In this document: piece after piece, positions 23,521-43,759 of the stretch
Position numbering within the stretch: the first letter of the stretch is position 1
How the letters are laid out: each line of letters begins with the position of its first letter
DNA from: Octopus vulgaris
Taxonomy: Eukaryota
NCBI GenBank assembly: GCA_951406725.2
Contig: OX597833.1
Location: forward strand, 30,566,001-30,630,000
DNA length: 64,000 bases
Direction: 5' to 3'
Notes under the pieces: model-generated
Told to the model about the DNA's origin: nothing
Seen by the model: the letters and a program-made list of their open reading frames with translations, nothing else
Database searches by the model: none
Program-made: the position numbers and the translations under genes

Positions 23521-23799
23521 AATGAAATATATGTATGTATATATATATATATATATATATATATATATATATGTATAAATATATGTATATATATATTTAT
23601 TTATATATATACACATACATTCATATATGTGTGTGTGTGTGTATATATATATATACTGGGTCATCCCATAAATAATGCAATTTTTTTCAATTGCATGAAC
23701 TAAAAGTCGGAGGATAACGGGATAAACTACCCGCATCAGTTTGCGATAAAAGCAGGCAGTAATTTTACCTTGTATTTACTCTTAACGCAAGTTTTGAAG

Positions 23800-24887
23800 A
23801 ATTTTGTTTGTATTGCAGTTGTATTGTAGTTTAAATATTGTTGTACTGTTGTATGAATTGTTGTAGTGTTCGCTGAACACTTTGGATTTTGCTGCACTGT
23901 GTCAGTCTGGTTGTACTTTCCCTCCTCATAGAAAAATGGAAGACATCAGATTTTCAGATAGCAGCTACACTGAGGTGTCTGGTTCTGAGCAGTCGGACAT
24001 TTTCATGGACCATTAGGAAGGGATAAAAATCAAGGCTTGATAGAAGCTTCGCAGAGGTGGCAAAAATATTGGAGTTCAATATGGAAAGGAATGAGTGGAA
24101 GGACTATTCAAAAATGATGAAAAGGGAAGGAACTAATGTGAAAGTGACAGCTCCAATGGAAATTATCATTAATAGGATGGAATGTACGGTAGTATACAAA
24201 AGACATTCAGTAGACACAGGAAGAATTAACAAAATAATAATGAATCAAGTGGAGAAAGCACTACTGCCAGTCTGGAAGGAAATCAAATATCTAACCAGAG
24301 GGAGTAAATTTGGAACAGTTAAAGTTTGATTTAAGGATGCAACCATAGCAAATTTGAACGCGGCAACAATCTTAAAAACTGATGAAGTGGTGATGTTGCC
24401 GATATATCATGGAAGGTGTGCCATAAGGGTCAATGTAGAGGGAATCCCCCAGATGTCAACGTGGCTTGGATAGCAGCTGCTGTCTTGCTCAGCAATGAGG
24501 AAGAGATAGCGGTTCTCCAGGCCACTAAGACGGAAACAAGAAACTGGAAAGTGCAATCCCTAAACATAGTGATACAGAGGCCAAAGGAAATAATAGAAGA
24601 GTTGCTGGAAACAATAGCATTTGATGGTGTAATAATGGTAGTTAAAGTAGAAGGCAGGATTGCCAAATGCTACAAGTGTGGCTAGAAAGGCCTTATTAGG
24701 GCAAACTGCCCTCTACAAGACAAAAAGGGAAAGGAAGAACTGGCAAGAGAAAAGGAAAGTATACACCACCACCAACATCAGAAACAGAAGAAGAATGCAG
24801 AACTGATGGCAAATGGGTGACACCAAGCAAGAAAAGGAAAAGAAAAAGGAGGAAACCAGGTAAAATATTGTGGGCAATAAAAAATCA
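23800..24887 (+). mobile_element. ORF1-only retroelement A (internally deleted near the 3' end)
   Basis: Disrupted ORF1 (YLTRGSKFGTV, PPDVNVAW, VEGRIAKCYKCG*KGLIRANC knuckle); ends TTGTGGGCAATAAAAAATCA; flanked by target copies 23774-23799 and 24888-24906. Confidence 0.8.
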
Positions 24888-24906
24888 ATTTATTCTTAGC
24901 GCAAGT

Positions 24907-26548
24907 CATAGAGTTCGTATCGTGCTAGTGTGTTTACTGATTGTGTGAGTAGTTGACTGGCCTGTGCTGCTTTGCAGTGGTTTTCTGGTTGTGCTTTCTC
25001 TCTGCCTTGAGGAGGGTCAGCAATGTCAACAGTAAGAAACATGTTCTATTCGGACCTTAGTGGGTCCGAATTGTCCTCTTCAGAGGAAGAGCTCATATGA
25101 GCAGTTGGTAGAATGGACAAGCGCTTAAGGAAGAAAAGTTTTGCAGAAGTGATAGAAGTCACAAAAAAGGAGGTGGATCTGACAAACATGCAAAAATATG
25201 AGAAAATGGCATGTAGGTTAGGTGGTGACGTTAAGCTGTCACCATCACAGAAAGTATTGGAAGAAATGGATAAGAAAACAGTAATATATAAGGTGCACTC
25301 AGTGGAAGAAAGGAAAATTGAAAATGTTGAGGCAGAAATAATAGAAAAGGCATTGTGCTCCGTCTGGCAAGACATAACATATCTTGCCAGAGGAAGCAGA
25401 TACGGAACATTTGTGGTTCATTTCAAGTCAGAAGGAAAAGCAAAAGAACACGCAGTAAACACAGTAAAGTTGGATAAAGTGGTCTTTCTTATCTTGGAAG
25501 AAGGACTTCCAGGATTAGGGTGGAGGGAATCCCACCAGAAATAAATGTGGCTTGAGTTGCGGCGGCTGTTTTTCTAGGAAGTAAAGAAGAAATAGCCGTC
25601 CTCCAAGCCACGAAAACAGAAAATTCAGTATGGAAAGGCCAAACATTGGACCTGATCATACAGGGCACTGCAGAAACACTGGAAAATGTGGTGGAAACAG
25701 TGACCATTGAAGATGTAGTGTTGAGAATGTGGATGGAGGGTAAAACCTCTCATTGCTTTAACGGTGGCCAAAAGGTCACATTAGAACACACTGCTCTCTA
25801 CAGAAGCAGAGAAGTCAGGAGAAAGTTAGAAAGGAGCCGGAGGAGGTACAAGAGGAAGAAATGAGAAATGAAGAACTGTGGATGGTAGCTGAAGGAAGAA
25901 AAAAGAAGGACACAGTGAAGTAGAACCCCAAACCATACCCACACCATCCATACCCTCTCTGACCTCCCTCCCCCACAGACACCAAACCCACCTATTCCCC
26001 TCCAACACAAAGCAAAAGAAAAAAGAAACACAAGCACACAAGGATCAACAAACTCCCCCTCCCACTGAAAATTGTTTTACGTCTATGATTGTTGAAGGTG
26101 TGGACAAGGAACTGCTCAATAAGATAACAAAATGGAAGAATGCAAGATTTGTCCATGTCAAAGGATGGACAAACATTGATGGATGGCAGTCATGTGTTCT
26201 GGTGTCCGAAAGCCAAAAAAATGAAATATTGAAATTCAAGAGGGGTTATAAGTGTTGGAAGGTGAATTGTAAGTTAAAGACGATACCAAACAATATAAAG
26301 TACGAGGAACTGACCGAGAAATATGATATAGACATTTTAAAGGACTTGGAATTTAAAAAATAAAAGGAAGCAAGTGAGGCTGCTTGTGGTGGGGCAAGTA
26401 GCTCATTTTCATTGTATCATTCATTTATATCATACATTTTAATTTTTAATTTTTTTAATTTTTATTATTTTTTTTCGTTTTTATATGTCCCCACATGGTT
26501 TTGTGTTGTCCCTTCTATGTTGGCCCGTTGTGGGTAATAAAAAAATCA
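24907..26548 (+). mobile_element. ORF1-only retroelement B
   Basis: ORF fragments 25113-25544, 25646-25864 (CF.. knuckle remnant) and 26085-26363; no EN/RT; ends GCCCGTTGTGGGTAATAAAAAAATCA; target copies on both sides. Confidence 0.85.
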
Positions 26549-41666: not shown

Positions 41667-41704
41667 GACTTGTACTAAGAATAAGGACTTGCACTAAGAA
41701 TAAG

Positions 41705-43223
41705 ATGATTTTTTATTGCCCACAAGGGGCCAACACAGATGGGACAACAAAAACACATGTGGGGACATATAACACACAAAAAAATAAAAAATAAAAAACA
41801 ATTCAATTATGATAATATTAATGATTCATGAAAATGAGTAAATGAAAATGGGCTGCTAGCCCCACGTCTAGCAACTTCACTTCTTTTTAAGTCCTGATAC
41901 TTTTAGAACATCCAGATTAAAATTTTCTTGTAGCTCCTTGTACCCTATTCTTGCCAGTATCCTTTTTATATCAATGCCCATCTTCCAACACTTATATCCC
42001 CTTTTATATTTAACAATTACATCCCTTTGAACTTGTGACACCAACAGACACATGTCCTAACCCACTACACTTGCTTGTCCTTCCATATCAACAAATTTTG
42101 CCGTTCTCCAACCAGTCACCTCATTGATCAGTTCCTCCAGTGCATCTTTCGTTAAAACGCATACATACCCTGTTTCACTGGGGAGGGGATTTTTTTGTAT
42201 TTTGTGTCTGTTTCTCTTCTTTTTCCTTTTTATTTTGTAAAGGAGGGTAATGGGTGGGTTTGGTGTCTGTAGGGAGAGGGTGGGGATGGATTGGGGTTCC
42301 ATTTTGTACTGACCTTTTTTTTCCTTATCTCTGCCAATGTTCATACTTCCTCTCTCTCTTTTTCCTCTATTCACCCCTCTTGTTTCTTTTTAGACTTTTC
42401 CTCTATCTTATCCGTATTGTTGAAGGAAGTGTGCTTTAATGTGGCCTTTTTGGCCACATTTATAACACCAAGGTATCCTGCCCTCCACCCATACACTCAA
42501 AGTCACCTCTCCTACTGTCACTGTTTCGGCTAAACTTTCCAAAGTTTCAGTGTCTGCCTGAACCACGAGTTCTACTTTCTTCCCTTTCCATTTTGCTTTC
42601 TCAGTTTCTGAAGCTTGTAGAACAACCACCTCCATGTTTCCATATAGGACAAGGTGCGTGGGCTATAGTACCACTTTATTTGTCTTTATTGTGATTCCTG
42701 CCTGTCTCCTTGCTATTTCTTCTGACCTGTATTAGACAACTACTGTCCCAAATCAGTTACTTCTCTACATGAACACAATATTTTTGTGTACTGCATTCAA
42801 CGCCTTTTCTATTATTTCCACTTCCACTTGAACTATCTTTTCCTCTTCCACTGCATACACTTTGTAGATGATGGTTTTCCTTGCCATGTCCTCCATAATC
42901 CTCTCTGGTGGTGATAACTTCACATCACTGCCCACTCTGCTTGCCATCGTTTGGTGTACCTTGACATTTACAATGGTTATTTCTTTTCTGTTTATCTGTC
43001 ATCTCTGCAAAACTTCTTTTTTAACAAACACTTGTCCAACTTGTTCGCAGCTTCAATTAATTCCTCCTCCAAAGAGGGTATTCCTTTTAGCCATGGCTAT
43101 CTCTTGATAAAATTGAGAGAAAGCACAACTTGACACCGCTGCCAATGGAGCACAAAACAATTCAAATAACAATAATTCGATTAATGGTAATCACTAATTT
43201 AAACTTCAACTCACCAAACGACA
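41705..43223 (-). mobile_element. ORF1-only retroelement D
   Basis: ORF fragments 42765-42947, 42408-42635 (VEGRIPWCYKCGQKGHIKAH) and 42057-42374; same 3' terminus; target copy at 43224-43241. Confidence 0.85.
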
Positions 43224-43759
43224 ACTTGTACTAAGAATAAGGGTGTGGTTAAATTTATGTTGTTCCCTTCACACTTTGCTAAGCTTTTATATTTTTCTAG
43301 GTCTGACTGAGTAATCTTTAGGTTTTCCTGGTTTATAGTTTGGTTTGGTTTGGTTTGGTTGATTCATTTTCTTTGTTGGTTAATTCCTTTTCACTGTTGC
43401 GAATTGGGGTGTCCTTTGTAGAATCTGTTGTATATTTCTGGGTATTTACTTGGTTCACCTCCTCCTGTTCACAAAGGGAAGTGCTGGGAACATTACTTAG
43501 TACATCTCGTCAAGCCTGTTAGTATTGGGGGTGTTGTCAACATTTTGGCCAGAAGCTATAATTTAAAAAAAGTGTAAATAGATTACATAAGAAGAAGTTA
43601 CAAAAAAAATTTCAATTTGTCCCTTAATGGGGGAATTTCTAAACTCAATAACTCACGTGAGGGAAAAACATCTGCACAGCCAAAATTGTTGAACCTTCAT
43701 ACATTGTCTAACAACAGGAGAATCTATCATATATATATATATATGTATCAAGAAGAAAG

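Follow-up and report, generated by a model that had tools for sequence, protein, structure and literature searches.

Position-specific integration of long interspersed nuclear elements (LINEs) is documented at genes transcribed by RNA polymerase III (Pol III), and sequence-specific integration is documented for Tx1, R1, and R2 elements. The system discussed here was found in a stretch of 64,000 nucleotides of the Octopus vulgaris genome (assembly GCA_951406725.2, contig OX597833.1, positions 30,566,001 to 30,630,000 of the forward strand; referred to as the window for its whole length), where four retroelements that encode only open reading frame 1 (ORF1), here named A to D, occupy one site in the 5' untranslated region (UTR) of a mariner transposon. 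We are highly confident that this feature is real, that the insertions are independent, and that the elements are non-autonomous. The hosts used by their family share a predicted TATA box about 30 bp upstream of the cut and no common sequence at the cut itself.

Neither the targeting of mariners by Tx1 elements nor the existence of HAL1 elements is new. In crocodilians, the Tx1-Mar LINEs and their SINEU passengers prefer a mariner and are often found in tandem, sister families target long terminal repeat (LTR) elements and Harbingers, and transcription from the flanking host has been suggested for the crocodilian Tx1 families (Kojima 2015, PMC4494074). The octopus system resembles this one in its Tx1-group LINEs with non-autonomous passengers, its preference for a mariner, and its tandem insertions. 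The SINEU passengers, however, are short interspersed nuclear elements (SINEs) headed by small nuclear RNA sequences, whereas the octopus elements are protein-coding and carry ORF1 only. Furthermore, the Tx1-Mar sites are in a non-autonomous mariner, one near position 240 (in antisense) and one near position 830, and the passages of PMC4494074 that describe them state neither a common feature nor a TATA spacing. HAL1 elements are likewise non-autonomous, encode only ORF1p, and arose more than once (PMC5753468). They have been described from mammalian L1 and have a type II ORF1, whereas the octopus elements have a predicted type I ORF1 with RNA recognition motifs (RRMs) and a CCHC knuckle, are of Tx1-like LINE origin, and are target-biased and array-building.

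The proposed placement of the octopus insertions at a set distance from a promoter would be a likeness to TRE5-A and NLTR-A of dictyostelids and to Ty3, which show such position-specific integration, and the ORF1 protein of TRE5-A binds TBP, Brf1, and Bdp1 (PMC5911963). TRE5-A and Ty3 integrate at Pol III (tRNA) genes, TRE5 upstream and in antisense, whereas the octopus sites, known from sequence, are at TATA-type promoters predicted to be served by RNA polymerase II (Pol II), with insertion in sense at about +1. HeT-A is also non-autonomous and has no pol; it is found with autonomous partners in mixed head-to-tail arrays and uses promoter sequence in its upstream neighbour, but it attaches to Drosophila chromosome ends, belongs to a different clade, and draws this promoter from its own 3' UTR rather than from a host (PMC5537684). 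In the open-access literature, we found neither a LINE described as integrating at TATA-type starts nor target-biased HAL1-like elements. A 2026 repeat annotation of O. vulgaris describes 13 recently active L1-Tx1 families, and the terms "HAL1", "nested", and "non-autonomous" are absent from its main text (PMC13282606).

Independent insertions at one mariner site

The host mariner is about 1290 bp long and was recognized by the HTH_48 and Transposase_1 domains of an empty copy (L030), by short terminal inverted repeats (TIRs), and by TA flanks. A 17-nt motif at positions 120-137 of the 1295-bp reference marks the target site. When up to three mismatches were allowed, this motif occurred seven times in the 64-kb window, each time at a junction that had been named in an earlier reading made from the letters only (the sequence-only reading). 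The placement of A to D at one motif-marked mariner site was thereby borne out, and the two transposase start codons given by that reading were also correct (Table 1). Conversely, the TTTGAAG that it had counted as part of the target site is the head of the entire A subfamily, following the first motif copy. The inserts were further said to part the mariner left end from its ORF, which is true of copy 1; for copy 2, no left end was found upstream of D within the window.

Elements A to D are 62-72% identical to one another in pairwise comparison, and each consists of a decayed ORF1 with the common 3' tail at its end. Element A is short, as about 590 bp before the tail are missing in comparison with its relative L147; full-size ORF1-only members measure 1.5-1.75 kb. 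No endonuclease (EN) or reverse transcriptase (RT) was found when the four elements were searched by tblastn with an intact ORF2 at E<=1 (0/4 matched). The zinc knuckle and the lack of EN and RT were correctly read, whereas "gag-like" understated an ORF1 with two RRMs, a Pro-rich linker, and a C-terminal domain.

The genome comprises 2.8 Gb in 227 contigs. Empty mariners carry the motif (up to three mismatches) once in 24 of 28 copies and twice in none of the 28, in agreement with the expectation of a single motif; the idea that the motif is the element's own terminus is ruled out by this single copy. The 268 non-SINE tail matches examined, of which some are false and others belong to LINEs or array units, include 14 that run into the host mariner. 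All 14 junctions have one orientation and fall within positions 116-120 of the 1295-bp reference, and 11 of them were obtained via element-only queries. Two minus-strand matches (L149 and L159) that adjoin the mariner left end were judged false tails and dropped.

Twelve occupied mariners are scattered in a star-like tree among 28 empty copies (5 of the 17 occupied hosts, with fewer than 300 aligned bases, were left out of this tree). The mean distance is 0.141 among A-bearing hosts, 0.139 from A-bearing hosts to empty copies, and 0.132 among empty copies, and not a single derived column is common to the occupied mariners. Moreover, at 8 of 12 loci the 5' and 3' copies have the same variable dinucleotide ahead of the motif, where 2.5 loci are expected (p=0.0002), which identifies these copies as true target duplications made from each host. 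As the occupied mariners form no clade, share no derived columns, and have host-specific bases in their duplications, the insertions are independent. Together with the divergence of A to D, these observations led us to reject segmental duplication and mariner hitchhiking, and they uphold both the repeated targeting and the regeneration of the site with the building of arrays that had been claimed. One cluster of related A-like copies (L169, L170, L173, and L175, at G000:C14:73.5-74.5 Mb) has near-identical flanks and adjoins a diverged mariner left end; its members are probably local segmental duplications.

The ORF1-only family and its probable partner LINE

An exact 25-nt tail pattern matched the genome 732 times and the control 0 times. 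The tail is common to ORF1-only elements, an abundant SINE, and full-size LINEs. Young ORF1-only relatives have one intact ORF of 439-472 aa followed by the tail, and they form mixed head-to-tail arrays with the LINE that reach 12-13 units of about 1.67 kb. Target duplications of 16-24 bp surround ORF1-only units of 1.3-1.7 kb. A to D are old, HAL1-like non-autonomous LINEs that have ORF1 only and have their own target duplications of 16-22 bp; this ORF1 and their 3' end derive from an autonomous LINE that the genome also contains. The sequence-only reading had correctly described them as non-autonomous and HAL1-like.

The ORF1 is laid out as two RRMs, a CCHC knuckle, a Pro-rich linker, and a C-terminal domain. 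In a structure model made for one ORF, the confident core (residues 68-285) matches tandem RRM domains, and the C-terminal domain had no Pfam match, no atlas match, and a predicted local distance difference test score (pLDDT) below 50. No Transposase_22 match was obtained in ORF1, where zf-CCHC and the tandem RRM fold were found instead; HAL1 in the strict sense of a mammalian L1 derivative was therefore rejected. By this fold and the knuckle, the ORF1 of the A-D family is of type I (RRM and CCHC), which is consistent with Tx1 as described for non-mammalian animals in PMC5203782. Between ORF1-only subfamilies the core has 0.285 nonsynonymous (dN) and 1.83 synonymous (dS) substitutions per site, and since dN is far below dS, ORF1 has been maintained by selection in the ORF1-only lineages. 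The ORF1s of ORF1-only elements and of LINEs are 27-30% identical with 24 invariant columns. In the ORF1 tree, A to D and most young members stand apart from the LINE ORF1s (support 87) and one ORF1-only type, Y3, is placed with the LINEs, which suggests that ORF1-only elements may have arisen more than once. From a DNA tree with poorly aligned rows, we considered only the four clades around A to D. A protein search with ORF1 returned only fragments of octopus gene models.

The partner LINE, represented by L206, has an ORF1 of 446 aa and an ORF2 of 1128 aa with Exo_endo_phos (EN), RVT_1 (RT), and zf-RVT domains. It is young, with nine further copies at 98-99% identity. The last 45 nt or so are common to L206 and the ORF1-only elements, and LINEs of the L206 type are found in the same arrays; from this shared tail and these shared arrays, L206 or an older relative probably mobilised A to D. 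The best match of ORF2 in the PDB is human L1 ORF2p (E 4e-66), and its other relatives are mostly unnamed, with no named Tx1 reference among the matches listed. On its sequence, the partner LINE is likely to belong to the Tx1 clade.

Several further observations concern the tail and the arrays. Young arrays inside the Helitron-like repeat described below include L126-L128 (G000:C1:142.936-142.966 Mb), L129-130, L131-132, L141, L318, and others. The abundant SINE with the LINE 3' tail occurs in the window at 4230-4627, 18629-19039, and 54665-55034 and elsewhere as L096-L119. At SINE-to-SINE junctions the tail enters one fixed position of another copy in 20 of 23 cases, and three LINE or ORF1-only tails run into SINE position 16.

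Other hosts and subfamily preferences

Host use was tallied per subfamily by hand for relatives of at least 78% identity outside the window, and these samples are small. Mariner-site insertions make up 6 of 8 relatives of A, 3 of 5 of C, and the single relative of D (1/1), whereas relatives of B are found in an LTR in 9 of 13 cases and in the mariner in 1 of 13. The difference in mariner use (10/14 for A, C, and D versus 1/13 for B) has p=0.0013. By Kojima's definition, a family is target-specific if a single repeat type accounts for over 20% of its flanks, and the flanks exceed this share in the mariner for A, C, and D and in the LTR for B.

The LTR host begins with TGT, followed in L285 by a primer-binding-like site. 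From such primer-binding sites we take it to be of gypsy type. A third host is the 5' UTR of a piggyBac-type transposon (DDE_Tnp_1_7), and the fourth, presumably a Helitron to judge from its ends, is a non-autonomous repeat that has captured part of an ORF1. This Helitron-like host carries an array head in 22 of 30 fetched copies, a share that is biased upward because the query overlapped the junction. Within the captured part of ORF1, the codons for Tyr-Lys-Val by chance read as a TATA box. In a single case (L316 / L345), one Helitron-like host has a mutated TATA box and its 5'-most insertion is displaced upstream of the usual site. LINE tails also run into another recurrent repeat, where their positions are scattered across some 60 bp (L179, L181, L195, L196, L201, L224, L308, L310, L312, L321, and L323).

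With several unrelated hosts in use, a single family-wide target is ruled out. The expectation that most copies would be flanked by the motif consequently fails across the family, given the 14 of 268 tail matches in the host mariner, and the mariner proves to be one of several promoter-bearing hosts rather than the target of the family.

Distance from TATA boxes

In the four unrelated multi-copy hosts, the target duplication starts about 29-31 bp after a TATA-like box and insertion is in sense. The distance from TATA to TTATTC in the mariner is 31 bp in 19 of the 25 empty copies in which the site was found, and the duplication starts 2 bp earlier. TATA lies at -29 in 2 of 3 copies of the piggyBac 5' UTR, at -29/-30 in the Helitron-like host, and at -29 in L038 for the LTR host; in three other LTR copies it lies at -24 to -27 if counted from the printed anchor.

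A spacing test was fixed before new loci were added: TATAWAW, in which one mismatch was tolerated, had to start between -33 and -28. From 40 loci, 11 single LINE sites could be called strictly (13 with relaxed calls), and another 40 loci gave 7. The box was present at the set spacing in 5 of 9 discovery LINE sites and in 4 of 18 held-out LINE sites, compared with 11 of 180 background windows (6%; p=0.021), so that the held-out LINE test modestly supports a TATA spacing. In a split by LINE family made after the data had been seen, held-out sites of the L206 type had it in 4 of 12 cases (p=0.006), or 5 of 14 if two relaxed calls are included, and SINE control sites in 1 of 19. The offsets of the TATA start peak at -31 (6/22). 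Furthermore, TATA was found at -30/-31 in LINE copies that are truncated at the 5' end, occupy unique sites, and have duplications of unrelated sequence (L197, L207, L210, L233, L241, and L317). As truncated copies could not be source copies, this spacing argues for targeting rather than for the survival of those copies that happen to be transcribed.

Mechanism and alternative explanations

The most likely mechanism, to which we lean with slightly better than even confidence, is promoter-position targeting at predicted transcription starts combined with a leader-assisted host bias. The ORF1-only RNA would be coated by its own ORF1 protein and reverse-transcribed in trans by a LINE with the same 3' tail. 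The LINE machinery would cut at the predicted transcription start, some 30 bp beyond a TATA box, with the position of the cut set by a TATA-bound initiation complex or by local DNA shape. The new copy, in sense at about +1, would then be transcribed from the host promoter into an RNA that begins with the duplicated target, and this leader would be carried to the next site, where it would give rise to stacked heads. Pairing of the leader at the 5' junction may finally bias each subfamily back to its founder host, and such a leader-driven return would explain both the subfamily preferences and the head-to-tail arrays. The two stacked motifs at the D/C junction may accordingly represent a target duplication plus a carried-over 5' leader. 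The head of L140 likewise consists of two motif copies, lying inside an unrelated 22-bp duplication, and the heads of L156, L166, L221, and L222 bear motifs of other targets. Stacked heads fit promoter borrowing but could also reflect template switching.

A broader statement of promoter-position targeting is offered more tentatively, as we place it somewhat below an even chance. It holds that the LINE and its ORF1-only satellites use the Pol II core promoter as a ruler: wherever there is a TATA box, they would nick about 30 bp beyond it, at +1, and insert in sense without needing a promoter of their own. They would thereby capture the promoters of mariners, piggyBacs, and LTRs, cut transposases off from them, and build arrays of up to a dozen units.

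Several points weigh against promoter-position targeting. Without the leader step, a rule of position only leaves the host bias of the subfamilies unexplained, and the L206 LINE is too recent to be proven as the mobiliser of A to D. The preset TATA motif is missing at 8 of the 12 held-out sites of the L206 type, at all sites of a second LINE family (0/6 with TATA, in a split of families made after the data had been seen), and at all but one of eight ORF1-only copies at single sites (1/8 with TATA). A proportion of 11/23 versus 1.7% depends on a motif list tuned on the data and is descriptive only. In addition, two mariner-site copies (D in the window and L134) have no TATA-bearing left end. 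CpG decay confounds the variants that bear on the order of insertion, so that insertion into distal, TATA-less copies of an array is also conceivable.

The alternative that we take most seriously, while considering it unlikely, combines homology homing with a promoter trap. Here, the machinery would be loosely selective, chance landings after promoters would have become sources, and the RNA would pair with look-alike sites through its 5' leader or 3' read-through; the TATA spacing would then mark which copies are transcribed and not where the enzyme cuts. The subfamily-specific hosts, the stacked leaders, and the ORF1-only single sites without a box would all suit this explanation, and read-through into the target is plausible as the junction lies about 10-15 nt past AATAAA and has no poly(A). 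Source selection, however, cannot yield the box at -30/-31 in 5'-truncated LINE copies at unique sites, and B-clade members are present in both LTR and mariner.

It is decidedly improbable, in our view, that a Tx1 endonuclease recognizes the mariner 17-mer itself, with other LINE lineages recognizing the other hosts and the TATA spacing being a coincidence. The very tight insertion position in the mariner and the second LINE family without a TATA signal would be accounted for in this way, and there are precedents in Tx1-Mar and SINEU of crocodilians and in Tx1L, which inserts in Tx1D (PMC4494074). Against this stand the duplications of four hosts and the single sites, which share the TATA distance and no sequence, and the use of two unrelated targets by one clade (B); in addition, no autonomous family specific for the mariner site was found, the sole case seen being a short LINE fragment (L136). 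Finally, multiplication of one or a few mariner-plus-insert composites by transposase or segmental duplication is very improbable indeed: one 5' junction is common to the A-subfamily copies, and most occupied Helitron-like copies share one derived junction, so that hitchhiking may have helped there, but the occupied mariners form no clade and share no derived column, host-specific bases are present in both duplications, and four insert lineages as diverged as A to D use the site.

Features of the window

The features of the two mariner copies and their inserts are listed in Table 1.

Table 1. Positions of the mariner copies, ORF1-only elements, and target-site copies in the window
Feature	Position	Strand	Remarks
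Motif sites	23776, 24890, 26551	+	Motif scan
Motif sites	40009, 41684, 41703, 43240	-	Motif scan
Mariner copy 1, left end	23655..23800	+	TIR from ~23656; reference positions 3-145; 88% match to empty copy
Decayed mariner TATA box	23745..23752	+	GATAAAAG versus TATAAAAG in most empty copies; 29 bp ahead of target duplication
Target-site copy 1	23774..23792	+	TTTGAAG (A-subfamily head) next
Element A, ORF1-only	23793..24887	+	Decayed, ~590-bp deletion; ORF start 23936; tail 24870-24884
Target-site copy 2	24888..24906	+	
Element B, ORF1-only	24907..26548	+	Broken ORF ~25023-26363; C-terminal domain 26070-26357; tail 26530-26544
Target-site copy 3	26549..26567	+	
Mariner copy 1, 5' UTR and truncated transposase	26551..27146	+	ATG 26615; reference positions 121-735
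Decayed two-ORF L1/Tx1-group LINE	36301..39324	-	ORF1 homologous to A-D, EN, RT; adjoins mariner copy 2 at reference position 827; 3' part lost
Mariner copy 2, 5' UTR and truncated transposase	39325..40010	-	ATG 39945; reference positions 120-827
Target-site copy after C	39993..40011	-	
Element C, ORF1-only	40012..41667	-	Broken ORF ~41565-40158; tail 40015-40029
80-bp copy of adjacent mariner within C	40642..40721	-	97.5% to 39902-39981
D/C junction, two stacked motif copies	41668..41705	-	Same stacking at L140
Element D, ORF1-only	41706..43223	-	Broken ORF ~43094-41875; tail 41709-41723
Motif copy 5' of D	43224..43241	-	DNA upstream is non-mariner

The 80-bp insert in C has its source in the mariner 680 bp away, shows short microhomologies, and resembles templated break repair. 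In two mariner-site insertions, namely in the window (43241-43620) and in L134, the 5' motif copy is preceded by non-mariner DNA, and at both D and L134 the mariner left end is gone exactly at the motif. The decayed LINE next to mariner copy 2 is cut at about 36300 by what we take to be a Penelope-like element, with an RT at 35481-36245 and a presumed GIY-YIG-like ORF at 34868-35392. Pieces of other Tx1-like RTs are present at about 15000-15750 and 45750-47050. The region is flanked by LINE copies at 2289-3816 and 22052-23596 (a 92% pair) and at 345-2288, which we assume to be of a CR1/L2-like family; mariner copy 1 comes after one of these copies, with a TA microsatellite in between.

Implications

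Irrespective of any TATA rule, the octopus elements are a molluscan family of Tx1 satellites with ORF1 only and a bias in their targets, which brings together two things that were each known. If promoter-position targeting is true, one rule would cover Tx1 families that hit the 5' ends of unrelated transposons, and the octopus elements would represent a retroelement that lives on borrowed promoters and disables other transposons. The young and intact L206 LINE would then provide a test object for promoter-directed insertion.

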